A stretch of DNA of 31,776 bases from Nitrospirota bacterium (lineage in GTDB: Bacteria > Nitrospirota > UBA9217), in assembly GCA_041495765.1 (NCBI GenBank), contig JBGQDI010000001.1, positions 1-31,776 of the forward strand. The letters run 5' to 3'. Below, piece after piece: positions 14,382 through 31,776 of the stretch. Numbering within the stretch: the first letter of the stretch is position 1; each line of letters opens with the position of its first letter. The notes below the pieces were generated by a model, which saw only the letters and a list, made by a program, of their open reading frames with translations, did no database searches and was not told the DNA's origin. The translations under genes were made by a program, and so were the position numbers.

Positions 14382-14471
14382 TTCTCGATATGGTTGCGAG
14401 TCCACACTCAAAAGTGGACCCGGTTCACCGCCGGCAGGAAAACGGACTGCCTCCGGAAAATGGGAACGCTC

Positions 14472-16949
14472 ATGAACCAACTTCGAAACCTGGTCTTTAC
14501 TGCGGTTCTTCTGGGTCTCACTTTTTTCGCGAGCTTCTGCCTGGCTCAAGTGAGTTCACCCGTGAGTCAGCCCGACATGACCGACCAGCGGCATACCAAA
14601 GAAACCAGCGCACACACGGTGGTCCCGCCATCGGCAGAAGCAACGGTCGTGGTAGAGATACCCCGGACCCAGTGGTGTCAATGCGTCCGGGGTATTCTCG
14701 GGGTCGAAGGCGGGGATGTTGCGGGGTGTGTCAAGAGCGGGGCTTCGGAAGAGAAGCTGAAGATCTTCCGGCAGCGCGGACAGGGCAGCGGGAGCTCGAC
14801 CACCGTAACGTCCCTTCTGGCTTTTGCAGGTTGCAGCGAAAGCGAGAACCGGAGGATAGGATCTCTCTCGTTCGAGCTGGAATGGAGGGACCGGCCCGCC
14901 AGTCCCCCAGGCGTAGCTGTATCCTCTTCTGCCAAGATACCGGCAGAAGAGGCGCTACCGGTCACCTGCGAATCTGGCGGGGTCAGCACCATTCAGGCAA
15001 CATTATACCGACATTCCAGGGTAAAACTCGCATCCGTTAACCCCTGGGATTGTGTCCACCCCGTCGGCACCCTCAACAATATCCCAACCGGTTCGGGGAT
15101 CAGGTTCGTCATAACCGGCAAGAACGCGTCCGGTGCGGTACTCTACCGCAAAGAACTGGATGAGGTGACGATCGAATATAATAAGAGGACAGCGCTCGGG
15201 ACCGTCACTGCCATGTCTTTCGTCCCCGTCCTTTCTCTGCCGGGAGATGCATCGCTGGTGGGAAGCGGACGCGTTCGTTTTGCCTGGACCGGCGCAGCCG
15301 GCTCGACCTCGTACCAGCTCCAGGTGTCGGAATCCCCGGGTTTCTCGCCGCTTGCTCTAGACGCTCCTTTGACGGCTACATCATATGAAACAACTGCCGC
15401 CCTGGAGTCCAAAACCTACTATTGGCGCGTAAAGGCCACGGACGGCTACAGCAACACCAGCGAGTGGTCTTCTGTCCGGAGTGTCACGGTCGATGCAGAG
15501 CCTCCAGTTAATACCACTGCCGATAACTTCATCAACAAGGGCGCTCCGGCGACGAACGCAGGCACGGTCGCACTGGTGATATCCGCTCAGAAAAGAACGG
15601 GCGTCACCGGCTACTCGATTTCAGAACGGTCAAAGAAGCCGGAGGCCGGCAAAACGGGATGGGTCGCTATTCCCTCCACGGCATCCTACGCAGCCGAGAT
15701 TCCCTTTACGCTGAGCAAAGGTGACGGGAACAAGAAGATATACGTCTGGTTCAAGGATGCTTGGGGGCATGTCTCCGCAGGGAAAAGTGGCTCGATCCTT
15801 CTGGATACTACGCTTCCCCAGACGATGATCACGAGCCATCCGTCTTCGTTGACCAATTCGACAGCAGCACAATTCTCCTATTCCTCCACAAAGCCCCGCT
15901 CGACACTTCATTGCGCTCTTGACGGCGGCGTGTTTTCGCCCTGCACCGGTACGACGACCTACGAGGGGCTTCCGGAGGGGCCGCACACTTTTTCGGTCAA
16001 GGCGATCGATGCCGCGGGCAATACGGACCTTGTCCCCGCACGCTTCGACTGGACCATCGACCTTACGCCGCCTCATACCACCATTACCATGCAGCCACCT
16101 GTTCGGACCGACTCGGCCTATGCCCGGTTCAGTTTTTCCTCATCCAAGCCGGGCTCGACCTTCCAGTGCCAGATCGACAGAAATGCCTCTGCAGCTTGCA
16201 CCGATCCCATGGAATATCCGGTGCTGACGGCGGGCCCGCATACCTTTCTGGTCATGGCGACAGATACGGTCGGCAATACCGATCCCGCCCCTGCCCGCTA
16301 CAGCTGGACCATCGCGCCGCCGTTCAAGACGGCCATCACGGACCACCCCTCCAATCCCTCATCATCGGTCAACGCCGGATTCAGCTTCGCTTCCACCTGG
16401 CCCGGAGCAACCTACCAGTGCCAACTAGATAGCGCCGGGTATTCCGTTTGTATTTCTCCAGTGACCTATACGGAACTTACCGAGGGCAGTCATACCTTCA
16501 GCGTCAAGGCCCTTGATCCCTCGGGCAATGAAGAAGTTACGCCTGCACAGTATGTCTGGCTGATAAGTCTGCCGCCGATCGCAAGATCACCGAAGCGCTT
16601 CATCAATAGAGGGATCAGATTTCCCGGTTATGTCACGGATAAGAACGTCGTCAAATTAACATTGGCAGCGGTAGGCACCAAGAACGTTACGGCGTACTAT
16701 ACATCGGAAGATCCCGAGAGGCCTGATCCCGCTGATCCGGCATGGATCGCGATCTCACGCCCCTCCCTGGAATTTTCCCGCGTGGTGCCCTTTACCATGA
16801 GCATAACCAAGGGCACCAAGACCGTATATGTTTGGTTTAGGGACGTGGAAGGGAACGTGTCCGAGGTGATCAGCGATAGCATCTACTATTACAATTCAAC
16901 GTACCTGTTGATCGCCTATATTGTGATCCAGGTGGCCCTTCTGCTGTAA
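14472..16949 (+). CDS. Secreted/surface protein with FN3/Ig-like repeats and a C-terminal hydrophobic tail (~825 aa)
   Basis: Signal peptide; FN3-like W..V.A.D segment; three ~85-aa repeats (T.IT..P...F.F.S......CxLD.....C......L..G.HTF.V.A.D..GN); two FIN.G...VWF(K/R)D..G.VS repeats; ends YLLIAYIVIQVALLL. Start may be 14460. Confidence 0.82.
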   Translation: MNQLRNLVFTAVLLGLTFFASFCLAQVSSPVSQPDMTDQRHTKETSAHTVVPPSAEATVVVEIPRTQWCQCVRGILGVEGGDVAGCVKSGASEEKLKIFRQRGQGSGSSTTVTSLLAFAGCSESENRRIGSLSFELEWRDRPASPPGVAVSSSAKIPAEEALPVTCESGGVSTIQATLYRHSRVKLASVNPWDCVHPVGTLNNIPTGSGIRFVITGKNASGAVLYRKELDEVTIEYNKRTALGTVTAMSFVPVLSLPGDASLVGSGRVRFAWTGAAGSTSYQLQVSESPGFSPLALDAPLTATSYETTAALESKTYYWRVKATDGYSNTSEWSSVRSVTVDAEPPVNTTADNFINKGAPATNAGTVALVISAQKRTGVTGYSISERSKKPEAGKTGWVAIPSTASYAAEIPFTLSKGDGNKKIYVWFKDAWGHVSAGKSGSILLDTTLPQTMITSHPSSLTNSTAAQFSYSSTKPRSTLHCALDGGVFSPCTGTTTYEGLPEGPHTFSVKAIDAAGNTDLVPARFDWTIDLTPPHTTITMQPPVRTDSAYARFSFSSSKPGSTFQCQIDRNASAACTDPMEYPVLTAGPHTFLVMATDTVGNTDPAPARYSWTIAPPFKTAITDHPSNPSSSVNAGFSFASTWPGATYQCQLDSAGYSVCISPVTYTELTEGSHTFSVKALDPSGNEEVTPAQYVWLISLPPIARSPKRFINRGIRFPGYVTDKNVVKLTLAAVGTKNVTAYYTSEDPERPDPADPAWIAISRPSLEFSRVVPFTMSITKGTKTVYVWFRDVEGNVSEVISDSIYYYNSTYLLIAYIVIQVALLL

Positions 16950-17414: not shown

Positions 17415-18854
17415 ATGAAAATGACCGACCTCTCCCCACTAGTGCTTTCCCCAGCCACGCCCTCGCATCAGAATAAGATGAAGGTTCTGCTTGTTGATGA
17501 TGAGGTCCTGATCAGATACTCATTACAGCGTCTGATCGAGCGGGAAGGTTTTAGCATCACAACCGCCGGTTCGGGACTTGAGGCGCTGCGGCAATTCGAT
17601 CAGGAAAAGCCCGATATCGTAATTCTTGATATCCGCCTTCCCGACACCAGCGGTTTGACTCTTCTGAAAACGATAAAAGAAATAAGCCCGTCGGTGACCG
17701 TTGTCATGGTAACTGCGTGCCCCGATATCCAAAGCAGCGTTGAAGCGATGAAAATGGGTGCCTATGACTATCTTGATAAGCCCATCGATCTCGAAAAGCT
17801 GTTGAATATCCTGCATACGCTGAAGCAGGAACGGCCCCAGGACAAGACCGTACAACTGCCGGGCAGCGTCGCGTTCCAAAGTGATGCCATGAACGAGGTG
17901 TTCAGGATCACCGAGCGGCTTGCAAATAAATCGGATGTAACGGTCCTGGTGCTGGGCGAAAGCGGAACGGGAAAGAGCTTCCTTTGCAAAGCGGTCCATG
18001 AACTAAGCCCGCGCAAGGGGAAGCCTTTTGTGGAGATCGGGTGCTCAACCATTCCCGATCATCTCATCGAGAGCGAGCTCTTCGGCTATGAAAAGGGCTC
18101 ATTTACCGACGCAAAGATGTCCAAAAAAGGACTCATCGAGACCGCCGAAGGAGGCACCCTTTTCCTTGATGAGATCGGGGATATGCCCTCGACGATGCAG
18201 TCAAAGCTGCTCAGTCTGATCGAAGAGCGGCGATTCAGGAGGATCGGAGGGCTTCAGCAGCTGAGCGCCGATGTCAGGATCCTCGCTGCTACGAACCGGA
18301 ACCTGCACGAACTCGTGCAGGAGGGTAAGTTCCGGCTCGATCTCTACTATCGCCTTCATGTGGTCACTATCGAAATGCCGCCACTCCGCGCCCGGAGGGA
18401 GGACATTCCCCTGCTGGTCGATCATTTTCTGCACCATTTCAGCGCGAAGCACGCCTGCCAGACCAACAGCCTGACTGCCGCGGCATTGGAAGCACTGCGG
18501 GAGTATTCCTGGCCCGGTAATTTGAGGGAATTAAAGAACCTTCTTGAAAAACTTGTTGTCATGTCCAAGGGCGACAAGATAGGTATTGACGATCTCCCGC
18601 CCTACATCCTGGCCAGGAAAGAGGTTGTCGCGCCGCCCGCGCCGCCGAAGAGCTCCGCGGCCCTTCCGGAACAGCCTTCAGAGAACGCTAATCGCAACCG
18701 CTTTTCGCTTAAAGTGCTCGAGGAAGAGTCCATTCGGGCGGCCTTAAAGACGGTAAAGGGGAACCAGCGTGAAGCGGCGAAACTGCTCGATATTACGCGG
18801 GACACCCTGCGCTACCGTATGAAAAGGCTGGGCATCAGCTCAATGCAGTATTAG
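17415..18854 (+). CDS. sigma54-dependent two-component response regulator (NtrC/AtoC family enhancer-binding protein)
   Basis: Receiver (VLLVDDE, LDIRLPD), AAA+ (GESGTGKS, GSFTDA, LFLDEIG, WPGNLREL) and Fis-type HTH (GNQREAAKLLDITRDTLRYR). Confidence 0.95.
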   Translation: MKMTDLSPLVLSPATPSHQNKMKVLLVDDEVLIRYSLQRLIEREGFSITTAGSGLEALRQFDQEKPDIVILDIRLPDTSGLTLLKTIKEISPSVTVVMVTACPDIQSSVEAMKMGAYDYLDKPIDLEKLLNILHTLKQERPQDKTVQLPGSVAFQSDAMNEVFRITERLANKSDVTVLVLGESGTGKSFLCKAVHELSPRKGKPFVEIGCSTIPDHLIESELFGYEKGSFTDAKMSKKGLIETAEGGTLFLDEIGDMPSTMQSKLLSLIEERRFRRIGGLQQLSADVRILAATNRNLHELVQEGKFRLDLYYRLHVVTIEMPPLRARREDIPLLVDHFLHHFSAKHACQTNSLTAAALEALREYSWPGNLRELKNLLEKLVVMSKGDKIGIDDLPPYILARKEVVAPPAPPKSSAALPEQPSENANRNRFSLKVLEEESIRAALKTVKGNQREAAKLLDITRDTLRYRMKRLGISSMQY

Positions 18855-19106: not shown

Positions 19107-20909
19107 TTAATAAGAATGCGTAGCGGCGTTATGCGTCACGCCGTGGCAGATCAGCGTACAGCTTCCGGCCCGTGACCCCGTGTCCGTAAAAAATGGATAC
19201 GTGTTGCCGGCTACGGGAGTGACGTAGCGCGTATCGAAATTGATCAGGTTGGTATGGGCGCCCGTCAACCCGTCGTCCGGGATCCCGTGCGGATCATGGC
19301 AGAGAGAACAGGGGGCATTGACCGTCCCCGTAATGTGGCCGCTGTGACCGCCCTTTCCGGCAAGGTTTTTCTTGAAGCTCATATCGCTCAGGATGCTGGT
19401 CCTGTTATGGCACCAATAACAGAGCTCATAGGTCGAAGGGCTTTCCATGATGTTGTCCCCGGTCTGGTACTGTTGCCTGATGAGCGGGCTGTACTGGGAA
19501 CCATGGGGGCCGCGGGGGCCCGATCCTCCGATCGCCTTGCTGTTGTCGGCGTCATGACAATCGGTGCAGGAGACCCTGCTTGACGTCGTCAAGGCGGGGG
19601 TGTTCGTTGAGGGGATGCTTGGCACGTCAAAATTCTTTCCCACGCCGGCCACGGGATGGTAGGAGGGGTTGATGGTCTGGAAAGCGACGCGGGTATTGAC
19701 GCTTTTCGCAACGCGCGGAATGGGCAGGAAGGTGGATTGCGCGGTCGAACTGGCGTGGCATTTGAAACAGATCTCGTATTCATAACTTGCATAATTGGGA
19801 GGCGTGATCCCGGCCCCGTTGATGTCAACGCCGCTCACCCCCTGCAGGCTGCCGCTTACCGCGGGCGTGGGCGCCGGTTGCCCGTTCGCGACATGGGGAT
19901 CATGGCAGTCGACGCATTCCACGTGTCCCGAGACCATAAGGGGAGATTCCTTCGCTTCATGATGGTTCGCCGTTACCCCGATGGTCGTGGCCTCCACCTG
20001 ATGGCGCGAGGATTTCTGGAACTCGGCCTGCACGTTCAGTGCAGCAACATTCCCGTTGTGGCAGGGATAGCAGTTGTTCTCTTCCTCAAGGTAATTAAGC
20101 AGCCGCTTTGGCCCTCCCGCGTTATGGGGAGCATGGCAGTTCTCGCATCCGTTCTGCTGAACGGTCGTCCGCCAGAAATCCGTGTTCACACCGGTCCGGG
20201 GCCAGGGGTTGGGCAGGGTGAGGTTCCAGGTGCTCTGCGAAGTTTTGTGCGGCGTATTGTCCCATCCTCGCATCACATGACACGATACGCACAGCTCCGA
20301 ACCGGTATTGTTCATGGCCAGGAACATCTTGTTGGAATTGTCATGAGGATCATGACAGGTCGTGCATTGCATGATCCCGTTCCCGTAGAACAGCAGGCCC
20401 GGCGGCGGTGAGGGCGAAAGCTCAGCGTTGGGGAGCGCATCATAATAGGAAAAAGAGACCGGATGGTGGGATGCGAGCGAGGTCCCGAAATAGGAAGGGC
20501 TTGTGGCGGGCATTCCTCCGGCAACGGTCATGGCGATCCGGTTCGACGGCTGCAGGGTCTGGCCCAGTGCGATCGTACCGTCATGGCAGCTCAGGCAGAG
20601 CCTGGTCGAGCCGGTCGGCCCTGCTGCTGACGCGGGGCTGCGCATGGTCTCGCTGGTATACGGCGTATACAGGGAATAGTTGATGCCCTCAATGTTCTTG
20701 TTCCAGAGGGGGGTCTGCGGGTTCGCATTATGCGGAGCATGACAGAATACGCAGATCCTGTCCTCGGTCAATGCCTTGATCGTTCCGGGTCCGGTCCTCG
20801 ACAGGTTATGCTTGGTATAGACAATGCTCATCTTTGCCTCGGTCCCGGAAACCCAAAGAACCGTTGCAACGGAGAGCAGGAGTGCCATGATCCGCGCGGG
20901 ACTGTTCAT
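19107..20909 (-). CDS. Multiheme cytochrome c, about 12 hemes, with N-terminal OmcE-like tetraheme module
   Basis: Signal peptide; 11 CXXCH plus CTLICH (CX3CH); N-terminus KHNLS..ICVFCHAPH..PLWN..LCLSCHDG..HHPV..CTTCHDPH..LCVSCH; ATGA overlap with the upstream NHL gene. Confidence 0.92.
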   Translation of the reverse strand: MNSPARIMALLLSVATVLWVSGTEAKMSIVYTKHNLSRTGPGTIKALTEDRICVFCHAPHNANPQTPLWNKNIEGINYSLYTPYTSETMRSPASAAGPTGSTRLCLSCHDGTIALGQTLQPSNRIAMTVAGGMPATSPSYFGTSLASHHPVSFSYYDALPNAELSPSPPPGLLFYGNGIMQCTTCHDPHDNSNKMFLAMNNTGSELCVSCHVMRGWDNTPHKTSQSTWNLTLPNPWPRTGVNTDFWRTTVQQNGCENCHAPHNAGGPKRLLNYLEEENNCYPCHNGNVAALNVQAEFQKSSRHQVEATTIGVTANHHEAKESPLMVSGHVECVDCHDPHVANGQPAPTPAVSGSLQGVSGVDINGAGITPPNYASYEYEICFKCHASSTAQSTFLPIPRVAKSVNTRVAFQTINPSYHPVAGVGKNFDVPSIPSTNTPALTTSSRVSCTDCHDADNSKAIGGSGPRGPHGSQYSPLIRQQYQTGDNIMESPSTYELCYWCHNRTSILSDMSFKKNLAGKGGHSGHITGTVNAPCSLCHDPHGIPDDGLTGAHTNLINFDTRYVTPVAGNTYPFFTDTGSRAGSCTLICHGVTHNAATHSY

Positions 20910-21961
20910 TTTTCGCCTCGTAACAGCTGAAAAATTTGGACACGTTGATTGTACGTATCACAGACATAGAGCCGCTCCCTGCGGTCCAGGAACAGACCTG
21001 ACGGCATCGAGAACTCGCCGGCGCCATACCCCCGTCCGCCTATCGTGAAAAGAAATGCGCCGGAGCGATCGAAGAGCTGGATGTTGTCGAACAGGGTATC
21101 AACGACGTAAATAACGCTTTGCCCGTCCACCACGAGGCCCTTGGGCATGGCGAAATCGCCGGACCCGTTCCCATGATGCCCGAAAGAGAACAAAAAGGCT
21201 CCCCCGGTACTGAAGACCTGGACGCGGAAGTTCATGGAGTCGATGACATAGAGGTTCCCGTCGGCTGCGGCAACGATATGGGTCGGGTAATTCAGCTGGC
21301 CCTTGTCACTTCCCGGTTCTCCGAAGGAAGAGAGAAATTCGCCTTGTGTCGTAAACGCATGCACCCGGTTCGCCACGGTGTCGACTGCATACAGGGCCTT
21401 TGTCCGCGGCGAAAATGCGAGGCCTGTGGGTCTCTGCAAGGGCTCGTTGCCCGCATTTTTGAGCGTGAAGAGGTACTCACCGGCCGGCCCGAACACATAG
21501 ATCGCGTGATTGGTAGAATCGGACACGTACAGCCTTGAGGCATCGTCGAAGGCAACGCCGACCGGGGTCAACAGGGTATCCTTTCCCGCCTGTGAGATCT
21601 TCACGTACCTATACTCGGACGGAATATACAAATGGACGCAGGGACCGCCCGTATCTGCTATGGCGATCCGGTCGTCATTGCCGACCGCCGTGGCGACCGG
21701 ACGGATGATGGCATTGTCTTCCGGTCGTCTGCCGAAGACGAGATACCTGAGGAGGTTCGACGTCGAGGTCCCTGTCTCTTTGAACCCTCTGATGGATTCG
21801 ACATATGCTGCACGGGACCGGTCGGAGTCGTCGCGCCACTGGGGCGCTGCATTCCCGGCCTCGAGGTACAGCGACCATTTCGACGCGCATCCGGCGCAGA
21901 GGATGGAGACGGCAGATAGGCCAGCAATAAGACAGGCGAACTTTTTAAGCATGCTAAGCAT
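20906..21961 (-). CDS. NHL-repeat six-bladed beta-propeller lipoprotein
   Basis: Lipobox CAGC; repeated P.G(V/L)A.D....YV.D..N.R(V/I)Q.F units. Confidence 0.9.
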   Translation of the reverse strand: MLSMLKKFACLIAGLSAVSILCAGCASKWSLYLEAGNAAPQWRDDSDRSRAAYVESIRGFKETGTSTSNLLRYLVFGRRPEDNAIIRPVATAVGNDDRIAIADTGGPCVHLYIPSEYRYVKISQAGKDTLLTPVGVAFDDASRLYVSDSTNHAIYVFGPAGEYLFTLKNAGNEPLQRPTGLAFSPRTKALYAVDTVANRVHAFTTQGEFLSSFGEPGSDKGQLNYPTHIVAAADGNLYVIDSMNFRVQVFSTGGAFLFSFGHHGNGSGDFAMPKGLVVDGQSVIYVVDTLFDNIQLFDRSGAFLFTIGGRGYGAGEFSMPSGLFLDRRERLYVCDTYNQRVQIFQLLRGEK

Positions 21962-21967
21962 GGTTAC

Positions 21968-22966
21968 TTATTGTGCCTTTTCCTGTCCGTCCAAGATCTC
22001 TATTCTTGCGTTCTGCTTCAGTTGCAGCTCCCATTCCGCTCGCCGTGTTTTCAGCGCAACAGCCCGAAGCCTGTTCTCAATGGCCGTGCTCACTTCCTGA
22101 TAGGCCTTCGGCTTTTCGGGGACATAATCGGTCAGTTTGATGATGTGGATGCTGTCGCGGGTCCTGATCACGCCGGAGAGCTCACCTACCTTGAGCTTCC
22201 GGGCAGCGTCATAGAGCAGGGGCTCCCGTTTCTTCTCCAGTTCATAGTTTTGAACAAGAAAGGTCCCGTCGGAGCGAAGGTTCGCCGGGTCTTTATCCTT
22301 GTCCTCCAGTATTCGAGCGAGGACCGCATTCGCCCGCTCAATCGATGCGGGATCGTCAAGCCCCAGAAAGAACGTTATGTCCGTTATGGTGATCTTTTCG
22401 GGATCCGTAAATTGGTCCTTGGTCCGTTCATACTCTTTTTTCCGTTCATCCTCGGGGATGACGATCTTCGCAACGGTTTCCGTAAAAAAGGCCTGCTGGA
22501 TGAGGAGATTGCGCTCGACGCGGGCGCGGAGGTCCGCATCGGTCAGGTGCTCTTTTTCCAGGAACTTCCCATACTCTTCTGCACTGCCTGCTTCCATCCT
22601 GAGCTTTTCCATTGCCTTGTCGAGGATGCCTGCTCTCAGGGTCAACCCCGTGCGCTTCGCCTCCTGGTACGCCAGCTCCTGGACGATCAGCAGGTCCATT
22701 GCCCGCTTTCTGGTCGCTGCCTCGGGTTCTGAAATCTTTTTGTTCGCGTTCGCCGTGCTGATCCGGTTCATCATTTCGATGAGCGCAAGCCTGGTGATAT
22801 TCGTTTCGTTGATCCGGGCAATAACAATGTTCTCATCACGGGGCGTCGCGGAAAGCGGTGCGGCCGGGACCGATGCGGCCGTCCGGTGGGTGACGCATGC
22901 GGCTGTGCTGACCGAGACAGCAAGGGTCAGAAGAACGAAGACGGAGCGGTGGTACAGTGGCTTCAT
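21968..22966 (-). CDS. SurA-N/parvulin-type peptidyl-prolyl isomerase/chaperone lipoprotein
   Basis: Lipobox TAAC; VIARINETNIT, L.....L.YQEAKR.GL, GELSGVIRT...IHIIKL. Confidence 0.85.
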   Translation of the reverse strand: MKPLYHRSVFVLLTLAVSVSTAACVTHRTAASVPAAPLSATPRDENIVIARINETNITRLALIEMMNRISTANANKKISEPEAATRKRAMDLLIVQELAYQEAKRTGLTLRAGILDKAMEKLRMEAGSAEEYGKFLEKEHLTDADLRARVERNLLIQQAFFTETVAKIVIPEDERKKEYERTKDQFTDPEKITITDITFFLGLDDPASIERANAVLARILEDKDKDPANLRSDGTFLVQNYELEKKREPLLYDAARKLKVGELSGVIRTRDSIHIIKLTDYVPEKPKAYQEVSTAIENRLRAVALKTRRAEWELQLKQNARIEILDGQEKAQ

Positions 22967-23018
22967 GATAGGTTACCTCACGGGAATAAGCGTTTAACGG
23001 TGCTGTCGTGTCTTAATT

Positions 23019-24017
23019 CTATTTATGCTGCGTCGGAGCGGTCAGGATCTCGATCCTTGCGTCCTTTTTCAGCTCCTGCTCCCACGCCTGCCGGCGTTTG
23101 ATGAGCGCAGCCGTCCTGAGCTTGCCGGTCAACACACCTTTCGCTTCTTCGTAGGTCATTGTCCTCGCGGGAGTGTACCCGGTCAGCTTCAGAATGTGTA
23201 CTGCCTCTTTGCCGGCAATGGTGCCCGAAAGTTCGCCGATCTTGAGTGTTCGGGCGGCCTCGTACAACACCGGGTCCTTTGCCTTTTCCATGACGACCAG
23301 ATGAACGCCGAATGTGGCATCACTGACCAGATGTGCCGGGTCCCGATCCTTGTCGGCGCTCAATGCCGATAGAAGTCCCTGGGCCCTCTTCATCGCCTCC
23401 TCCTTGCTCAGCTCAAAGGGAACGGCAATATCCACGACAGACACTTTCTCAGGGACCACATATTCGCCTTTGGTGCGGTCGTATTCGTTTCGCATCTCGT
23501 CATCGGTCACGTTGGCTTTTTTGATGACCTCATCCGTCAGCATCTGCTGGACGAGCTGGCTTCGCTCGACCTGGGCGCGAAATTCCACCGCAGTGATATG
23601 GTTCTTCGCCAAATACTCCCGATAGCCCTCTTCGTGGCCCAATTTGCTGATGAACTGCTCCATGGTCCTGTCAATGAGGGAGTCTTCCACGCGCATTCCC
23701 CGACGCGCTGCTTCCTGGAGTGCCAGCTCTTGAAGGATCAGGATGTCCAACACCCTGCTCCTGACGGCTTCTCCCGATTGTGTGCCGGAGCCCTGTCGAT
23801 CTACGGCATTGAGACGGCTCATCATGTCGAGAAGGGTATAGTTCGTAATCTCCGTTCCATTGACCTTTGCCACGACGATTGCTTTGTCCTCCTCCGTTAA
23901 TTCAATGGGGCGCATGGCGGCCGCCGGCTCCGGACCAGGATGTTTCGCGCATGATGCGCCGAGAAGGGTCGCGCCAAGCATGATCAGCATTGAAGCAGTA
24001 CGTACAGCGGATCTCAT
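23019..24017 (-). CDS. SurA-N/parvulin-type peptidyl-prolyl isomerase/chaperone lipoprotein (paralog)
   Basis: Lipobox GASC; VVAKVNGTEIT, LQELALQEA, GELSG.I....VHILKL; co-linear with 21968-22966. Confidence 0.85.
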   Translation of the reverse strand: MRSAVRTASMLIMLGATLLGASCAKHPGPEPAAAMRPIELTEEDKAIVVAKVNGTEITNYTLLDMMSRLNAVDRQGSGTQSGEAVRSRVLDILILQELALQEAARRGMRVEDSLIDRTMEQFISKLGHEEGYREYLAKNHITAVEFRAQVERSQLVQQMLTDEVIKKANVTDDEMRNEYDRTKGEYVVPEKVSVVDIAVPFELSKEEAMKRAQGLLSALSADKDRDPAHLVSDATFGVHLVVMEKAKDPVLYEAARTLKIGELSGTIAGKEAVHILKLTGYTPARTMTYEEAKGVLTGKLRTAALIKRRQAWEQELKKDARIEILTAPTQHK

Positions 24018-24056
24018 AAGGTTCCTCCAGGATAGTTGCGATCTGCGGGGCTGTCT

Positions 24057-26105
24057 TTAGAACAGCGACCTGCGCAGCGTCATATAGTAATATTGGGACA
24101 GCAGTGCATTGGTCTCTGTTCCGTTCTTGACATTTGATCCGCCCTTTGACGCTGAACGGCTTATTTGCATGCCGGTGTCCAGAAAAATGAGGCCGATCCT
24201 CCAGGTGAGAAAGGAGTTCAGCGCGAGCATTTCCGAGTCCACGAGCGATCTCGTGATCGCATAGGAGCCCGTAGCGAAAAAATTCAGTTTTTGAGCGGGG
24301 AACTTCATGTCCATTCTTACGTTCACGCCGAAGACCTTTTGCAGGTATGCCGAGCCGATGGGCACCGAAGCAGAGGGGAAAAATTCCGTGCGTAAATAGG
24401 AGATGTCCGCAAAGACATTGGTCCTGTCGGAAATGGGGGACAGGTACTGCGCCATTCCCTTCCAGGATTCGTAGGGGTTCGTTGAGGAGCGAAAGGTCAG
24501 GCGTTCCAGCATCCCGGAATACTGGTCGATGCGGCAGCTTAATCCGATGGTCTCGGACTCGGTCTTGTCCGCTCCGCCCGCGTAGGGTCCCGAAGGCATT
24601 TGCTGGTTCGAAGCAAAGTAGCTGTAATAAGCGCTCAGCAGATTGTGCAGAAAATCGACCCGGATCGAATATCCCTGCGATGTTGCATTGACCCGTGACT
24701 GCTGCGACAGGGAATAGTTGATATGGAACTCATAGACCGCCAAAGGATCGGGCAATGGCGTCATCGGGAACACGCTTACTACCGTGATCAGGACGCTGTT
24801 CCCCGAGTGGGCGATCGAATAGTCGGTCGGCGGCAATGTTATCAATACTCCGGTAAGCGGGTCTTTTACCTTGACGACGATGGTGCTATCGAGGACGTGC
24901 TGCTGGGCCAGGGGAAACTGCACGGTCAGCGCAAAACGCTGCACCTCGTCGAGAATGGAAGGCGTACCCAGACGCTCTGTACTCATTTCGCCGAACGATA
25001 CCGCAGCGGTGAGAAGGCCGGTGGGAATGATCTTCGTGTACGTGCTCCCCAGCGTCTCAGAACTGGTCGTGATCTCGCCCGAGACGGACCTGGCCGAGAG
25101 GTCGTTGACGGAAAGATTCGTTACCAGGCTCTGGTAAAGACGGTGGGTAAGGTTGAACGCGGTGCTCGAAGAGCGGTTGAATTCCTCATGTGCCGGGTTC
25201 GTACCATCGGCCGCTGTGCGGTCGTTCTCGTCCTGGTATGCGAACGACGCTGCGCCAAGAAGGTTCCCGGGGAGGGGGGCGGTCAATTGTTCCGTCCACA
25301 TGAGCGTATGGGTCTCAAGCCCCGGGGCAAGGAACCTGGTCTGAGCAGTGTCGGTGTTGTTAATGCGGCTGTCAAAAGCGATGTCGGCGTATCTGAACGC
25401 ATTGCTATACCCATATTGCAGGTGGGAGGAGTGGACCCCTGAGGACGATGACGATTCGCTGTGCGAATAATTGGCCAGGTTCGCCATCAGCGGCGTTACA
25501 TAACCGGCCTGCGCGTGGTAGGATCTTGAGTCGACCTGGTTGTCCACGGATTGCGTCTTGTTCTCGGAGTAGCCCGAGCTGAAGCTGAAGGGTCGCCCCC
25601 GGTAGGTGAAAGCGGCCCCTTTTTCGTCCAGGGTGGACGCCTGTCCCTGCATGAAGGTCATTGCGCGATTGGAGAACTCGGTGTGCTGCACGAAGAGATC
25701 GAGCGTGTAGGGGTGTTCTGGCAGGAGTGTTGTCCTTAGTTCATAGTCCATGGCGGACCCGGAACGCGAACCATTGCCCGGCCCTCCCACTTCCCGTTCC
25801 TGATTGAGCCCTTCCGAGAGGCCGGCTTTGAAGATCGCGAACCTCGGATGATACACAAAGCCATCGGCGCTCAGGTTGATCTTTTCGCTGAAGATCCTGT
25901 CGGAGGCATTCGTCACCTGGATGCCCTGCCGGTTCTCTGTTGTTTGCGACATCATAACGAGATCAAGATCTCCGTGAAATGATTCGAACGTGGGGACAAA
26001 AGTCAGTTCCTGGCCGAACAACGTCGCCGGCAGATTCAAGGCAAAAAAAAACAGAACAGTGCGGGTCATACCGTTGAGATGGGTCAGTCGCCTGGACACT
26101 AGCAT
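24057..26105 (-). CDS. Putative outer-membrane beta-barrel protein with internal insertion domain
   Basis: Signal peptide; S/T/Y/F-rich alternating strands; C-terminal YYYMTLRRSLF (terminal Phe, BAM-type); GGAG RBS. Confidence 0.72.
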   Translation of the reverse strand: MLVSRRLTHLNGMTRTVLFFFALNLPATLFGQELTFVPTFESFHGDLDLVMMSQTTENRQGIQVTNASDRIFSEKINLSADGFVYHPRFAIFKAGLSEGLNQEREVGGPGNGSRSGSAMDYELRTTLLPEHPYTLDLFVQHTEFSNRAMTFMQGQASTLDEKGAAFTYRGRPFSFSSGYSENKTQSVDNQVDSRSYHAQAGYVTPLMANLANYSHSESSSSSGVHSSHLQYGYSNAFRYADIAFDSRINNTDTAQTRFLAPGLETHTLMWTEQLTAPLPGNLLGAASFAYQDENDRTAADGTNPAHEEFNRSSSTAFNLTHRLYQSLVTNLSVNDLSARSVSGEITTSSETLGSTYTKIIPTGLLTAAVSFGEMSTERLGTPSILDEVQRFALTVQFPLAQQHVLDSTIVVKVKDPLTGVLITLPPTDYSIAHSGNSVLITVVSVFPMTPLPDPLAVYEFHINYSLSQQSRVNATSQGYSIRVDFLHNLLSAYYSYFASNQQMPSGPYAGGADKTESETIGLSCRIDQYSGMLERLTFRSSTNPYESWKGMAQYLSPISDRTNVFADISYLRTEFFPSASVPIGSAYLQKVFGVNVRMDMKFPAQKLNFFATGSYAITRSLVDSEMLALNSFLTWRIGLIFLDTGMQISRSASKGGSNVKNGTETNALLSQYYYMTLRRSLF

Positions 26106-26231
26106 GGGACTCCCTTACTATGCATCGATACCGCTCGATACCCGCTCGTCACTGTTCTGTCCTGGCTCCGTTCAGGTCAATCTCTCTTGCATGAACGCAA
26201 TGGGTTCTTTGCATGCCGAGGGCCGGGCCGG

Positions 26232-26762
26232 CTATTTCAGCATATAATCATTTTCCGAACTGTGCGGATCATGACAGTCCGTACAGGACAGATCACCCGC
26301 CGCCTTGTGGGTCTCCCGCGAGGAGACCTCGGCCTTGTCATGGCAGTAAAAACAGAACTCGGCAGGTTCCGAAACGAGGAGAAATGCCTTTCCTGAACCA
26401 TGAGGATGGTGGCAGATGCGGCACCCGCCCGTGGCCGCGGGTCCATGGACCTTCCTTTTCCGGAGATCCAGGGTATGACAGTTCAGGCAAAGCTCTTCCA
26501 CCGGCAGAATGAGGTCCCCGCCTCCCTGCCGATGGCATGCCTCGCATAATTTAGCTGCGTAGGGTCCATGATTTCTGACCTGAGGAGCATCGGAAGCCGT
26601 ATGGTTCGTTTCCTTCGTTCGTCGTCCTGGTTCGGCTTTCTTCATTCCGGGAGCAGGAACCCCGTCGAAAAAAAAGTTCAAGGTCTGGTATCGCGTCTCC
26701 GGCGAGCAACCCGGGACCAGCGCAACAATGCTCATCATGAGCAATAACTGCGAGAGCTTCAT
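26232..26762 (-). CDS. Pentaheme cytochrome c lipoprotein
   Basis: Lipobox VPGC; RYQTLNFFFDGVP; CEACH, CLNCH, CRICH, CFYCH, CTDCH. Confidence 0.92.
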   Translation of the reverse strand: MKLSQLLLMMSIVALVPGCSPETRYQTLNFFFDGVPAPGMKKAEPGRRTKETNHTASDAPQVRNHGPYAAKLCEACHRQGGGDLILPVEELCLNCHTLDLRKRKVHGPAATGGCRICHHPHGSGKAFLLVSEPAEFCFYCHDKAEVSSRETHKAAGDLSCTDCHDPHSSENDYMLK

Positions 26763-27931
26763 GGTTTTTCTTTGGCAGCCCCGCCCTTTTCTTCTGCTGA
26801 TTTTTTGCCTTGCTCGATCTTCTTCAGTTTTTCCTTGAGCTGTTCCAAAAGCTCGGCGTCGCTAGGATATTTTTTCCCGCGTTCCTCACCCATTGCATAG
26901 ATGTTCAGCGACCGGTCGCCATTCTGGTTGGTAACGATGATCAAGTTCTCGACGATAAAATTCGGGTCGATGAACTTTTGGAAGAACTGAATGTTGTCAT
27001 AATCGACCACGATCTGTGCGGGCAGGTTCAGGTCGCCCGGCCCCTCGCCCGTCGTTGCGAAGGGGAAGAGCAGATAGCTTTCCTTGTTGAATATCTGTAC
27101 ATTGCCGAAACCGGCATCAAGTGCGTAGATCCGGTCCTTGCGGTCCAGGGCGATACCTTTCGGACGGGCAAAAGTGCCGCTTTCCTTGCCCATGACTCCG
27201 ACCGTGCCGAGACGGTGGCCGTCACGGTCGTATTTGAAGATCTTGAACCTGCCGGCATCGGATACGAACAAGTGTCCCTCGGAGTCAAAAGCCAGGTTGG
27301 TGGGGCGATGAAGCCGTTCCGCCGCTTCTCCCTCCTGGCCGATCTTTCTCAGGACGTCGCCGGTCTTGCTGTCAAGGACAACGACCTGGCTGTTCTGGAT
27401 GTCGGCGACGAAGAGCTGGCCCTCATAGGGCACAGCGTCGACCGGTTTCCATCCATCGGGATAGCCGAAGGCATTGATGAAGAAATCGTTCTTATCAAAG
27501 ACAACGACCTGGCTTCTGACCGTATCGGTGACGTATTTGGTGCCGTCGGGCGCGATGCGTATGTTCAGGGGCAGAATGAGCTTGCCTCTGCCCTGGCTTC
27601 CCGTGAACGTACCGAAGGTCTTGTTCACCAGGTCGATGACGATGAGCCCCTGGTTCACATCGCAGACATATATCTTTCCCTTCGAGATGGCGACACCGTA
27701 GGGCTTGTCTATCCTGAGCCCGCTTTCCTTCTCACCGGTCACGAAGGTCTGGAACGAGGATTTTCTGGCGACGATGTCCTTTTCGCCGGTCAAGGACATG
27801 AGAAACTGGATCCGGGCAAGGTCCGGCGGAGGCGGATAGAAGACCTTGGGCGCTTCCACCGGTGCATGCGCAGCACAGGACGTAATGAGAAGGAAATGGA
27901 TAAGAACAAGGATCTTTTTTACACTCTTCAC
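26759..27931 (-). CDS. NHL-repeat beta-propeller lipoprotein
   Basis: GTG start with GGAG RBS; lipobox ITSC; repeats KPYGVAI, RPTNLAFD, RPKGIALD. Confidence 0.9.
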   Translation of the reverse strand: MKSVKKILVLIHFLLITSCAAHAPVEAPKVFYPPPPDLARIQFLMSLTGEKDIVARKSSFQTFVTGEKESGLRIDKPYGVAISKGKIYVCDVNQGLIVIDLVNKTFGTFTGSQGRGKLILPLNIRIAPDGTKYVTDTVRSQVVVFDKNDFFINAFGYPDGWKPVDAVPYEGQLFVADIQNSQVVVLDSKTGDVLRKIGQEGEAAERLHRPTNLAFDSEGHLFVSDAGRFKIFKYDRDGHRLGTVGVMGKESGTFARPKGIALDRKDRIYALDAGFGNVQIFNKESYLLFPFATTGEGPGDLNLPAQIVVDYDNIQFFQKFIDPNFIVENLIIVTNQNGDRSLNIYAMGEERGKKYPSDAELLEQLKEKLKKIEQGKKSAEEKGGAAKEKP

Positions 27932-28043
27932 CGGATGTTCTCCATTTCCCGGCACTTTTCCACGAAAAGTACCGGACATGTTGAAATTGCGCTGCTTTCT
28001 TCTGGCTGAGCTTGCAGCGCATACCTGATTACGAAGGTGTAAC

Positions 28044-28072
28044 TTTATAACATAGTGGCTTCAATATATCAA
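28044..28072 (-). promoter_or_regulatory. sigma70 promoter of the assembly operon
   Basis: TTGATA-N17-TATAAA with TG extension. Confidence 0.65.
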
Positions 28073-28174
28073 CAGCAGGATGTGCGCAGCTTTTGGCAAA
28101 ATCTTAAATAACGCCCAACATCGTGTGCGGGAAGTTTCCGGGTCGACCGTTTCCGGTCTTGAAAGGGCAACAAA

Positions 28175-28213
28175 CAAAACAAGAGGGGGACAAGGTCTCC
28201 CCCTCTTGTTTTG
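28175..28213 (-). terminator. Strong intrinsic terminator after the omcE-like gene
   Basis: Perfect 16-bp stem CAAAACAAGAGGGGGA / TCCCCCTCTTGTTTTG, 7-nt loop, U-rich on the minus strand. Confidence 0.85.
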
Positions 28214-28233
28214 ACTACAGATAGTAAGTGCTG

Positions 28234-28998
28234 TTACTTTGCGTGGCAGGTGAGGCAGAGCGCGCTCTGAAAGTCCTCGACCCAGGTGAACTTCGCGCCT
28301 TCGTTCTTGGTGTTATGAACGTCGTGGCAGGAAGAGCACTCCATCCGGTTGTTCCAGAGGAGGTCGGAGATGTAGAGGTTCCAAGTTCCGTTGCCGATGG
28401 GGCCCCAATCGGCAGTCCGGATCTCGTCGTCAAGGACGCCCGCTACTGCGGTGTAGTCGAACCCGATGGGGTGATGGTTCTGGAGGTTGCCGCCTGCGCC
28501 GATAGCATACTCGGTCGCGGCCAATTTGGCGCCTGCTGCATTGCCTTTCGAGGGGTTCAGTCCACCGCCCAGGTTGCCATAAGCGGCGACGGCGATAGAA
28601 CCGTCATGGCAGCTCAGGCAAAGGATGGAAACGCTGCCCGGCTTCGTCAGGATGGCATTCAGCTGATGCTGCGTGCCCGTCGGCTGACTGAGGCCGCTGG
28701 AATACAGTTTGTTCGTAAAGTCCACCTGGGTTACATCATGGTTCCATAACGGATAGTACGAAAGGGGGTTGACGCCGGCAGCAGCTTCGGTATCGAGTGC
28801 TGCGTGGTGCGGGGTATGGCAATAGATACAGATACGGTCCAGCGTGTCTGCGGCATTGCCGTAGGTTTTGCCGTCACCTGCCGAGCTCATGTCATGAGCT
28901 GTTCCTTTGATTCCGTTTCCCGCGACGTATGCAGCCTGTGCAGTTGTTCCTATTACGAGGAGCAAACTAATGGTAAAGCCAACGATTAATTTCTTCAT
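28234..28998 (-). CDS. omcE: OmcE-like extracellular tetraheme cytochrome c (candidate nanowire subunit)
   Basis: SPI signal; AHDMS, ICIYCHTPH, PLWN, LYSS, LCLSCHDG, NHHPIGF, MECSSCHDVH and SALCLTCH at the C-terminus. Motif order matches Geobacter OmcE as recalled; AGGAG RBS. Confidence 0.85.
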   Translation of the reverse strand: MKKLIVGFTISLLLVIGTTAQAAYVAGNGIKGTAHDMSSAGDGKTYGNAADTLDRICIYCHTPHHAALDTEAAAGVNPLSYYPLWNHDVTQVDFTNKLYSSGLSQPTGTQHQLNAILTKPGSVSILCLSCHDGSIAVAAYGNLGGGLNPSKGNAAGAKLAATEYAIGAGGNLQNHHPIGFDYTAVAGVLDDEIRTADWGPIGNGTWNLYISDLLWNNRMECSSCHDVHNTKNEGAKFTWVEDFQSALCLTCHAK

Positions 28999-29697: not shown

Positions 29698-29713
29698 TGG
29701 CATTCATTGTGCA
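29698..29713 (+). promoter_or_regulatory. sigma54 promoter of the large cytochrome
   Basis: TGGCATTCATTGTGCA (GG-N10-GC). Confidence 0.65.
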
Positions 29714-29852: not shown

Positions 29853-31776
29853 ATGCATGTTAAAAAAAGTTTAATGCTGTGGGTTGCCGTACTTGCCCTG
29901 GCACTTCCGATGATGCTTGCCGGGACCGCCAGTGCCAAGTACATGGGCGACGGCGCGGTACAGGACGGCGGGACCGGCGGCTGGACAACGCCCAACGATA
30001 TGATGTGCATCGTCGGCGTACACGCTGACGGTACCTTGGATATTGCTGACGGCGTGACAAACGCCAGGGACTGCATCTACCTCCAGACAGGGACCATGAA
30101 TGGCGGAACAGCCTTCGACCTGACGGGGATGACCACATCTGCTGCATGTAAAAACGCAGGCGGCACAGGAAACGACGGTGCAGCACATGCCTGGGCGACC
30201 ACCTACTGCTCCAAATCCTTGAAGGGTCTGGACAGGACCCAGAAAATGTGCGAAGGGATTGGCGGCACCTGGGTGACCTCCGGCAAGTGCGTCGCCTTCG
30301 GCAGGGCGTTTAAGGGCCAGGATGCCAGCGGCACGCCTCTGGCGATCGGGACGAAAGGCAATACTGCCGCGGGCTCGGGCTTCTGCTATGCGAAGATGAG
30401 AACGGGCCTTGCAGATGCCAGCTGCCCCTCTGTCGTTGGCAGCCTTTTCGGGACCAAAACTGCGACATCGACTGAAGCCTTCGCCTATTCGGCGCCGACT
30501 TCAACGAATTGTACCTATGATTTCGGCATCAACGGCGTTCTCGATGCTGCGCTCACGAAAGCCAATGGCACGACCTACGCGGCTGGCACGAGTCTTGATC
30601 TGAGCGCCGTCGCTACACAAGGCGACTGTCTTGCCAATGGTGGTAAATGGGAACCCTGGGTACCCATGGGCACGTCAGCTGTAATCGGCTCCATTACTGG
30701 CGTTACCTTCGATCTCACCCGGCAGGCGGTTAACGCCGATGAGGGTTGCCTCCATTGCCACAGCACCAAGACCGAGTATAACGGACCTGCAGAGAGAGAG
30801 AAAGACAGCTATCTCAAGACCGGCCATAAGAATATGCTCCGGAAAGTAACAGCCGGCAATAACTATGCAGGCGCTGATGGTGCACTGTATACTGCATATG
30901 CGGCCGGATCCTTAAACTTCGGCACCACCGGTAATAACGACGCAACCGCCACTGTCGCTGGTGTTGCCAAGCCGCTCCTTTACCTTTTCGGTGACTGGAT
31001 GGCGCCAGCGCCTGCCGGTCTCGATGTTGTTGTCAGTATGAGCGGAGCAGCAAAGTATAATGGCGGCAGCGACTATAGCTGCGCAGCCTGCCATACGGCA
31101 GGTTGGAGCGACACCAGAGCAACAGCCGGTCTTTGCTCTGCTTCTTCAAAGACCAATTCCGCTACTTGTACGGCAGCTGGCGGCACCTGGACCCCACTTT
31201 CCGGTGTACAGGCCATCGGTACCCCCGGCTACGCTGCAAAACAGCCGGGCGATCCCTTCGGGGGGATCACCTTCGGGGCAGCAGGCCAGTGGGATAGTGA
31301 CGGCATTACTTGCGGAAGGTGCCACAATGCAACCGTTCCGTCGGTATCAGCGGCACAGATCGCTGCATCAGCCTTCCCGGCAACCGCTCCCACGTCCGGC
31401 GGAATGGGCGCGCTTGCAGCGGGCGTAACAAGGAACAGCCTCTGCTTCGGTTGTCACCAGAGCATGGCCAAGACCAACAATGGCATCGGCGCGGATGCGG
31501 ACCTTGCGAATCCGACGGCTCTTATTGTCAAGAACACCGCAGTTGCACCGGCCTATGTCCCCGGATTCAGCGGCCATGTGCTCGGCAACTCGTTCCTGAA
31601 TAGCCCGCATGCACGGTTCACCGGGTCTGTCGTGCCGAACTCTCTCGGCAAGTATGATCTGGCAACCAATACGGCTGCGAACTACAACAGCACGTTCAAG
31701 GGCTACACCTGCTGGCAGTCACCTACTTCCAACAGCCCGGCAAAGACCAATGCCGATGGTACTGAAATAAAGACCA
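29853..31776 (+). CDS. Large secreted multiheme cytochrome c with Cys-rich CxxxGGxW modules (partial, at least 641 aa, open at the window end)
   Basis: Not in the ORF track; translated manually with no stop. AGGAG RBS; signal MHVKKSLMLWVAVLALALPMMLAGTASA; CLHCH (30747), CAACH (31080), CGRCH (31311), CFGCH (31443). Confidence 0.9.
   Translation, partial: MHVKKSLMLWVAVLALALPMMLAGTASAKYMGDGAVQDGGTGGWTTPNDMMCIVGVHADGTLDIADGVTNARDCIYLQTGTMNGGTAFDLTGMTTSAACKNAGGTGNDGAAHAWATTYCSKSLKGLDRTQKMCEGIGGTWVTSGKCVAFGRAFKGQDASGTPLAIGTKGNTAAGSGFCYAKMRTGLADASCPSVVGSLFGTKTATSTEAFAYSAPTSTNCTYDFGINGVLDAALTKANGTTYAAGTSLDLSAVATQGDCLANGGKWEPWVPMGTSAVIGSITGVTFDLTRQAVNADEGCLHCHSTKTEYNGPAEREKDSYLKTGHKNMLRKVTAGNNYAGADGALYTAYAAGSLNFGTTGNNDATATVAGVAKPLLYLFGDWMAPAPAGLDVVVSMSGAAKYNGGSDYSCAACHTAGWSDTRATAGLCSASSKTNSATCTAAGGTWTPLSGVQAIGTPGYAAKQPGDPFGGITFGAAGQWDSDGITCGRCHNATVPSVSAAQIAASAFPATAPTSGGMGALAAGVTRNSLCFGCHQSMAKTNNGIGADADLANPTALIVKNTAVAPAYVPGFSGHVLGNSFLNSPHARFTGSVVPNSLGKYDLATNTAANYNSTFKGYTCWQSPTSNSPAKTNADGTEIKT

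Follow-up and report, generated by a model that had tools for sequence, protein, structure and literature searches.

Does a cluster of eight genes from an uncultured sediment Nitrospirota bacterium encode a filament-forming cytochrome together with the proteins that serve it, and do those proteins make up a secretion device or an electron conduit? The cluster occupies positions 19107-28998 of a window of 31,776 nucleotides (the whole stretch of DNA analysed here, contig JBGQDI010000001.1 of assembly GCA_041495765.1), taken from contig 1 of a 2.41 Mb, 66% complete metagenome-assembled genome (MAG). All eight open reading frames (ORFs) lie on the minus strand and encode, in this order, an OmcE-like tetraheme cytochrome, a beta-propeller lipoprotein (NHL1), a pentaheme lipoprotein (c5), an outer-membrane barrel, two SurA-like peptidyl-prolyl isomerases (PPIases; PPI1 and PPI2), a further propeller (NHL2) and a 12-heme cytochrome (c600). 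An earlier note on this DNA had read the eight genes, their heme counts, the lipoboxes and two ATGA overlaps from the letters, and on re-inspection of the sequence every one of these was borne out (Table 1). We suggest, with fair confidence, that the cluster represents the OmcE-type extracellular cytochrome system in its Nitrospirota form, combining a conduit with a polymerising subunit, and that the bacterium probably passes electrons across its outer membrane. It is a further member, of somewhat distinct architecture, of a kind of system already published.

The tetraheme protein, 254 residues long, carries the heme-binding motifs CIYCH, CLSCH, CSSCH and CLTCH behind a signal peptide ending in ...AQA. 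A phmmer search against all PDB chains matched it to 9YUQ from D. soudanensis (E=2.4e-20) and 7TFS from G. sulfurreducens (E=4e-19); the remaining three rows had E>=0.8. The alignment with 7TFS spans the full length of the protein (residues 5-254 against 6-232) at about 30% identity to OmcE, and a profile built from 40 homologs reached E=1.2e-29 with 7TFS and 2.5e-26 with 9YUQ and matched no other PDB family. Further to that, histidines 35, 64, 176 and 228 align with the histidines that OmcE carries outside its CXXCH motifs (in TKH, TPH, NDH and KVH) and are invariant in the 40 homologs, and the N-terminal distal histidine stands in a T-x-H-D-L-S motif common to both proteins. With a full-length match to both solved OmcE filaments and all eight heme-ligating histidines kept, the tetraheme is a true OmcE homolog, as had been proposed. 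OmcE and OmcS are known to polymerise by having a histidine of one subunit ligate a heme of the next (PMC9473688).

In an unrooted tree of 57 OmcE-like modules, which has long branches, the free-standing subunits of this cluster type form a clade of their own (support 100/100), and canonical OmcE from Desulfobacterota/Desulfuromonadia groups with the N-terminal modules of the 12-heme proteins. Judged by sequence, the tetraheme is an OmcE homolog from a sister subfamily and not an ortholog, and the module closest to canonical OmcE is the N-terminus of c600 rather than the 254-residue subunit.

The conservation of the cluster was followed by scanning a genome collection with a barrel motif, using a 25-sequence subset sharing LPEHPYNL; this gave 46 loci, in a survey that is biased to barrels carrying LPEHPYNL and leaves out the window's own variant, LPEHPYTL. 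All 46 come from MAGs, belonging to Nitrospirota (Thermodesulfovibrionales, Dissulfurispiraceae and Ca. Sulfobium), Acidobacteriota/Thermoanaerobaculia, Ca. Binatia and 'Deltaproteobacteria'/Desulfobulbia. When the eight window proteins were mapped onto these loci, the order subunit, NHL1, c5, barrel, PPIase (zero to two copies), NHL2 and c600 was collinear in about 40, which come from MAGs of Nitrospirota, Acidobacteriota, Binatia and Desulfobacterota. The arrangement is therefore not due to chance, because the same order recurs in about 40 independent loci.

The earlier note had described a tightly coupled operon following the tetraheme gene. Tight coupling holds for the downstream genes, with their ATGA overlaps at 26759-26762 (NHL1/c5) and 20906-20909 (NHL2/c600) and remaining intergenic gaps of 126, 39, 52 and 6 bp; the tetraheme gene stands apart, separated from the rest by 254 bp that hold an intrinsic terminator. 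It is preceded by a near-consensus sigma-54-type promoter, and out of 28 loci 17 have the motif TGGCAC/T-N5-TTGCT ahead of the orthologous subunit gene; the expected background frequency is 0.045 per 480 nt. In about 10 Nitrospirota-type loci the neighbouring sigma-54 response regulator has an ortholog at the corresponding convergent site; this regulator could be what switches on subunit production. No histidine kinase was detected by a Pfam scan of the window's 20 largest ORFs. The subunit gene is thus predicted to be a transcription unit of its own, running from a sigma-54 promoter to a strong terminator, and a separate, strongly terminated and inducible unit for a small secreted protein reads as that of an abundant structural subunit.

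The other cytochrome with OmcE-like features is c600, in which 11 CXXCH motifs and one CX3CH (CTLICH) make up the 12 hemes. Its residues ~16-211 form an OmcE-like tetraheme module that matches 7TFS at E=4.5e-27, more strongly than the separate subunit does. Beyond the module lies an 8-heme extension with an MtrC/MtrF domain (PF22113, 59 bits against a cut-off of 30) and a DmsE-like segment; the PDB search matched no relative of this non-OmcE remainder. Among the cluster proteins c600 is the best conserved (40-74% identity), its pattern of 11+1 hemes and its N-terminal TKHNLS motif being kept across phyla, and a lipobox is absent both here and in the orthologs. A related pair of genes is present on contig C7 of the same genome (L012:8003-11274), where a 361-aa NHL propeller is directly followed by a 717-aa 10-heme cytochrome with an OmcE-like N-terminus, ~3.7 kb upstream of pilB/pilT/pilC-like (T2SSE/T2SSF) genes. 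The propeller and the OmcE-module cytochrome appear to form a reusable unit.

The 682-aa protein matches no Pfam or NCBIfam model at cut-off, and its 465 representative homologs from a full-library phmmer search, nearly all of 660-700 aa, share the motifs GYVYHPRF, LPEHPYNLEL and a C-terminal ...R-K-L-F. AlphaFold2 (AF2) modelled it from 60 homologs with high confidence (pLDDT 89.4, pTM 0.75) as ~28 long strands, into which a small beta domain is inserted at residues ~383-466. Among the 50 matches listed by Foldseek for this model against the PDB there are large outer-membrane barrels exclusively, the highest TM-score of these 50 being that of MtrB (6r2q_B, 0.42, tenth by order of E-value); searched against the AFDB clusters, the model found unnamed generic barrels alone, with TM <=0.54. 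The proposal that this protein is a large beta-barrel thus stands, and by its size and predicted fold the barrel would be able to sheath a cytochrome.

The pentaheme protein points in the same direction as the barrel. Its best PDB match is chain A of 6r2q, from the Mtr complex (E=1.1e-9 over 84 residues, a partial similarity); we take this chain to be MtrA, the molecule label that our tool attaches to it being odd. Among NCBIfam models the pentaheme comes closest to the DmsE decaheme family (TIGR03508), at E=8e-12 and 45 bits, below the cut-off of 192. Conserved among the orthologs are five CXXCH motifs and a Cys with an LSFFFDGVP motif after it. NHL1 and the pentaheme form a single 536-aa ORF with five CXXCH motifs in one MAG of Ca. 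Sulfobium (L032:1485-3086), either a natural fusion or an assembly frameshift. Since the pentaheme resembles MtrA/DmsE and the barrel, by TM-score among the matches listed, comes nearest to MtrB, the pentaheme, the barrel and the 12-heme cytochrome probably form a porin-cytochrome conduit as well, a role at least as likely for them as that of a secretion device. The earlier idea of a complete folding-secretion-anchoring system is accordingly kept in part: the classes of component it named are all present, but their assembly into such a system was an inference, and the likenesses to MtrA/DmsE and MtrB would suit a conduit at least as well.

Lipobox cysteines were found in NHL1, the pentaheme, PPI1, PPI2 and NHL2, and are kept in the orthologs of NHL1, NHL2 and the pentaheme. 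The first ATG of NHL1 (27979) has no Shine-Dalgarno sequence before it, and the orthologs start ~15-20 residues later, just ahead of the lipoprotein signal peptide (region 27931-27979), so that the true start is probably internal, downstream of the annotated ATG. The presence of two propellers had been taken for a duplication, which we reject: NHL1 (orthologs 41-61% identical, in almost all loci) and NHL2 (40-63%, in nearly all loci) are only 24-32% identical to each other and constitute two conserved orthogroups, both found in essentially every untruncated and unframeshifted locus. Two propellers are the conserved ground plan of the cluster. The chaperones, by comparison, are indeed doubled, with two SurA_N plus Rotamase_2 copies, and are the sole component that is. 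A second PPIase copy occurs, among the 46 loci, solely here and in the related MAG locus L014. A recent tandem duplication was rejected on the grounds that PPI1 is 39% identical to PPI2 and that L014 has both copies too; the event is judged to be old.

PPIases are present, mostly as a single copy, in Nitrospirota-type loci and absent from the Acidobacteriota and Binatia versions. Eleven loci from Acidobacteriota, Binatia and 'Deltaproteobacteria' lack the gene (L021, L027, L029, L035, L042, L043, L045, L047, L049, L050 and L056); at ~14-15.4 kb in each of these loci, immediately behind the 12-heme gene or opposite it, there is an additional multiheme gene in which pentaheme-like segments are repeated.

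How does the cluster compare with systems already described? A six-gene core of the omcE cluster was described in Desulfuromonadia by Petersen et al. (2026, mBio, PMC13712944). Its representatives (the G. sulfurreducens filament, 7TFS; the OmcE bundles of Desulfuromonas soudanensis, 9YUQ) have a tetraheme subunit that is homologous to the one here and binds heme through the same eight ligands, and the same six classes of gene are found: subunit, two multiheme cytochromes, two propeller lipoproteins and one very large barrel. We reproduced this component set in a Geobacter-type reference cluster (L059), whose OmcE matches 7TFS at E=3.4e-37 and whose order is resB-ccsB-cyt-cyt-NHL-omcE-NHL-807-aa protein without Pfam domains-glycosyltransferases. 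By tblastn the NHL proteins and the pentaheme of the window match L059 (E 1e-35 and 1e-17), similarities driven by repeats and heme motifs. The barrel has 682 aa here and 807 aa in L059; none of the L059 cytochromes contains an OmcE-like module, whereas c600 does; and PPIases are present here but not in L059, where there is instead a glycosyltransferase block that the window cluster lacks. In a further Geobacter-type genome (G370; L065:7788-12724) a SurA-like PPIase, a GT2 glycosyltransferase, an NHL propeller and two multiheme cytochromes are followed, after one small ORF, by T2SS-F; PPIase, NHL and cytochrome genes therefore co-occur in Desulfuromonadia outside the omcE locus too. The location between purHDE/resB-ccsB and tRNA(Val)-modification/ffh was not found here, the window's ccsA-like gene (117-881) lying 18 kb off with unrelated genes between; this synteny was described for Desulfuromonadia only (PMC13712944).

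With MtrCAB/Pcc (6R2Q) the cluster has in common a multiheme cytochrome of partial similarity to MtrA/DmsE, a barrel of at least 26 strands with MtrB as its highest-scoring listed match by TM and a large cytochrome with an MtrC/MtrF-type signature. It differs in that the pentaheme, a lipoprotein, is half as large as MtrA, the barrel shares no sequence similarity with MtrB and reaches a TM-score of just 0.42, and the outer cytochrome, c600, has an OmcE-like module and no lipobox, unlike the MtrC/OmcB-type lipoprotein. Two propellers, the PPIases and a separate tetraheme subunit are extra. The OmcS-companion (osc) cluster of G. sulfurreducens likewise places accessory genes beside a filament cytochrome, and according to secondary sources folding (OscH) and secretion (OscE, F, G) functions are attributed to it (PMC13194489), along with proposed roles in porin-like mounting and morphology (Shen et al. 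2025, as cited in PMC13194489 and PMC13712944); OmcS is a hexaheme without sequence similarity to OmcE, and the comparison is one of descriptions only. According to Deng et al. (2018, PMC5815863), NHL proteins of Desulfovibrio ferrophilus IS5 are encoded and co-expressed with outer-membrane multiheme cytochromes and were proposed to stabilise the complex. By description those clusters stand apart, neither an OmcE-like subunit nor a large barrel being reported for them.

Taken with the architecture above, we propose the following for the topology and polymerisation of the system, where localisation is inferred from lipoboxes and signal peptides. The pentaheme lipoprotein, the barrel and the 12-heme cytochrome would form an outer-membrane conduit in the manner of MtrA inside MtrB; the OmcE-like module of c600 would be exposed at the surface as a base or adaptor between conduit and filament; and the abundant 254-aa subunit would polymerise onto this module by the OmcE mechanism of inter-subunit ligation of heme by histidine. 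Electrons could be exported along this route to minerals or partner cells, or be taken up. In a more specific form, c600 would be a fusion that anchors and charges the nanowire, its 8-heme, MtrA/DmsE-like part threading the 28-strand barrel and its OmcE-like module acting as a fixed first 'subunit' at the surface. We regard this form as possible but hold it only tentatively. If true, the wire would be continuous with the trans-outer-membrane conduit, with no need for separate secretion, and the recurrence on contig C7 would make the pair of propeller and OmcE module a modular surface socket.

Several observations weigh against a polymerising, OmcE-type system. The subunit clade sits on a long branch apart from canonical OmcE (100/100), and OmcE-like tetrahemes are very widespread (2917 matches) and need not all polymerise. 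An AF2 model of the tetraheme, made without hemes from a 40-sequence alignment, had a pLDDT of 47.7 and was unusable, so that the fold assigned to the protein comes from sequence homology alone; coil-rich proteins can be expected to score low when their hemes are left out of the model. No RNA run holding the gene was among the runs listed. Compared with L059, the gene order of the window (subunit-NHL-c5-barrel-PPI-PPI-NHL-c600) and its genomic position differ, and the two barrels show no detectable similarity by hhalign (probability 1.8%). A search of four Geobacter-type genomes with the barrel-family profile also gave no match, and G306 alone matched; the idea that the window barrel and the Geobacter-type barrel are homologous was dropped. 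As for the accessory proteins, our guesses are that the propeller lipoproteins may scaffold the complex at the outer membrane and that the SurA-like PPIases may act as periplasmic chaperones, either for the coil-rich cytochromes or for the large barrel; barrel proteins are the usual clients of SurA-type chaperones. Finally, we know of no filament that has been seen from this subunit clade, and of none that has been imaged from Nitrospirota, and in this respect the suggestion of a lineage in which such filaments are undescribed holds good. At the level of genes it does not, as OmcE homologs beside a barrel and a propeller have already been reported from five phyla, Nitrospirota included (PMC13712944).

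A simpler view is that the cluster encodes a porin-cytochrome conduit of the Mtr/Pcc kind and nothing else; the tetraheme would then form no polymer and act as a monomeric shuttle, soluble or bound to the surface, or as a terminal reductase. The MtrA/DmsE-like pentaheme, a barrel whose best structural match is MtrB and the above-cut-off MtrC/MtrF-type signature of c600 would all fit it, as would the distinctness of the subunit clade from the proven filament formers and the wide occurrence of OmcE-like modules, which are also found as domains of larger, clearly non-filament cytochromes. It is harder to reconcile with the invariance of four distal histidines in 40 homologs, given that in OmcE one distal histidine ligates the neighbour's heme, or with a subunit gene organised as would be expected for an abundant structural protein; and the published filament-forming clusters share the same accessory gene classes (PMC13712944). 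We consider this view unlikely, although it deserves to be taken seriously. That the cluster is instead a dedicated secretion and assembly machine, the barrel being a pore or usher, the PPIases folding the subunit, the propellers aiding export and the other cytochromes acting as donors, is improbable in our judgement: the functions attributed to the osc cluster by a secondary source (PMC13194489) and the presence of the usher FimD among the barrel's structural matches would favour it, but the FimD match is weak (TM 0.28, with no usher plug or Ig domains) and that to MtrB is better, the PPIases are not essential to the system, being absent from the Acidobacteriota, Binatia and Geobacter-type omcE clusters, and the conservation of the pentaheme and c600 is no less strict than that of the barrel, in keeping with a conduit complex.

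To our knowledge, cytochrome nanowires have been shown experimentally in few organisms only. Should the present clade polymerise too, the known reach of long-range extracellular electron transfer would widen to take in uncultured Nitrospirota of sediment and groundwater, Thermoanaerobaculia (Acidobacteriota) and Binatia, groups relevant to the cycling of iron, sulfur and carbon. Two features are missing from the Geobacter-type cluster, namely a conduit-like cytochrome with an OmcE-like module, and a barrel the size of MtrB accompanied by an MtrA-like pentaheme. Combined, they offer a testable model for how a filament is mounted on, and electrically connected to, the outer membrane, which is an open question in the 2026 literature. 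The system is not new in kind, its core having been published, and its main value lies in the anchor and conduit hypothesis, which can be tested via the 12-heme fusion.

The closest named homologs come from Nitrospirota MAGs, and near-identical DNA is present in sediment metagenomes. Within the phylum the system is patchy and accessory, since of 301 genomes sampled 21 were found to have the barrel, among them 11 of 63 in the family of the MAG and one of the five others in its genus. Sequences from Binatia and Acidobacteriota are nested among those of Nitrospirota in the subunit tree, a pattern that suggests transfer between phyla. The genome itself is a very cytochrome-rich Nitrospirota genome, with at least 45 ORFs containing three or more CXXCH motifs (up to 19) at 66% completeness.

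Table 1. Positions in the window of the cluster genes and of the predicted regulatory elements
Feature	Position	Strand	Evidence
OmcE-like tetraheme cytochrome, 254 aa, Sec signal peptide, no lipobox; candidate filament subunit	28234..28998	-	4 CXXCH; phmmer vs PDB; profile vs PDB
NHL1, NHL-repeat beta-propeller lipoprotein, 406-aa ORF	26759..27979	-	Pfam NHL E=2.3e-14; lipobox ITSC
c5, pentaheme lipoprotein, 176 aa, MtrA/DmsE-like	26232..26762	-	5 CXXCH; ATGA overlap with NHL1
Outer-membrane beta-barrel, 682 aa, ~28 strands, uncharacterised family	24057..26105	-	AF2 model
PPI1, SurA-N + parvulin-like (Rotamase_2) lipoprotein, 332 aa	23019..24017	-	Pfam SurA_N_3 1.7e-13, Rotamase_2 5.1e-13; lipobox GASC
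PPI2, PPI1 paralog, lipoprotein, 332 aa	21968..22966	-	Pfam SurA_N + Rotamase_2; lipobox Cys
NHL2, second distinct NHL beta-propeller lipoprotein, 351 aa	20906..21961	-	Pfam NHL 1.3e-24
c600, 12-heme cytochrome, 600 aa, signal peptide, no lipobox	19107..20909	-	11 CXXCH + CX3CH; ATGA overlap with NHL2
Sigma-54-type promoter cGGCAC-N5-TTGCA, ~180 nt upstream of the OmcE-like start codon	29177..29192	-	Read from sequence; near-consensus
Intrinsic terminator, 16-bp stem + T-run, directly 3' of the subunit gene	28175..28213	-	Minimum free energy -27.9 kcal/mol
Sigma-70-like promoter candidate TTGATA-N17-TATAAA for the downstream seven-gene operon	28044..28072	-	Sequence alone; weak; absent from consensus-scanner list
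Response regulator of the sigma-54 enhancer-binding type, convergent with the operon; may control the subunit promoter	17415..18854	+	Pfam Sigma54_activat 3.3e-65, Response_reg, HTH_8

Other genes of the window may be connected with the cluster. A 444-aa cytochrome with 13 CXXCH motifs (six Paired_CXXCH_1 repeats) is encoded ~5 kb upstream of the cluster (12597-13931, minus strand) and could be a periplasmic relay in the same pathway. Between it and the sigma-54 regulator lies a gene for an 851-aa protein (14394-16949, plus strand) with matches to Big_13 (Ig-like) and Y_Y_Y domains, which may be a surface or sensor protein. On the far side of the subunit gene, a divergent large cytochrome (29853-31775, plus strand) is open at the window end and has four widely spaced CXXCH motifs in 641 aa, its N-terminal part being Cys-rich and heme-free; near it, at 29698-29712, there is a sigma-54-like site, TGGCATTCATTGTGC.

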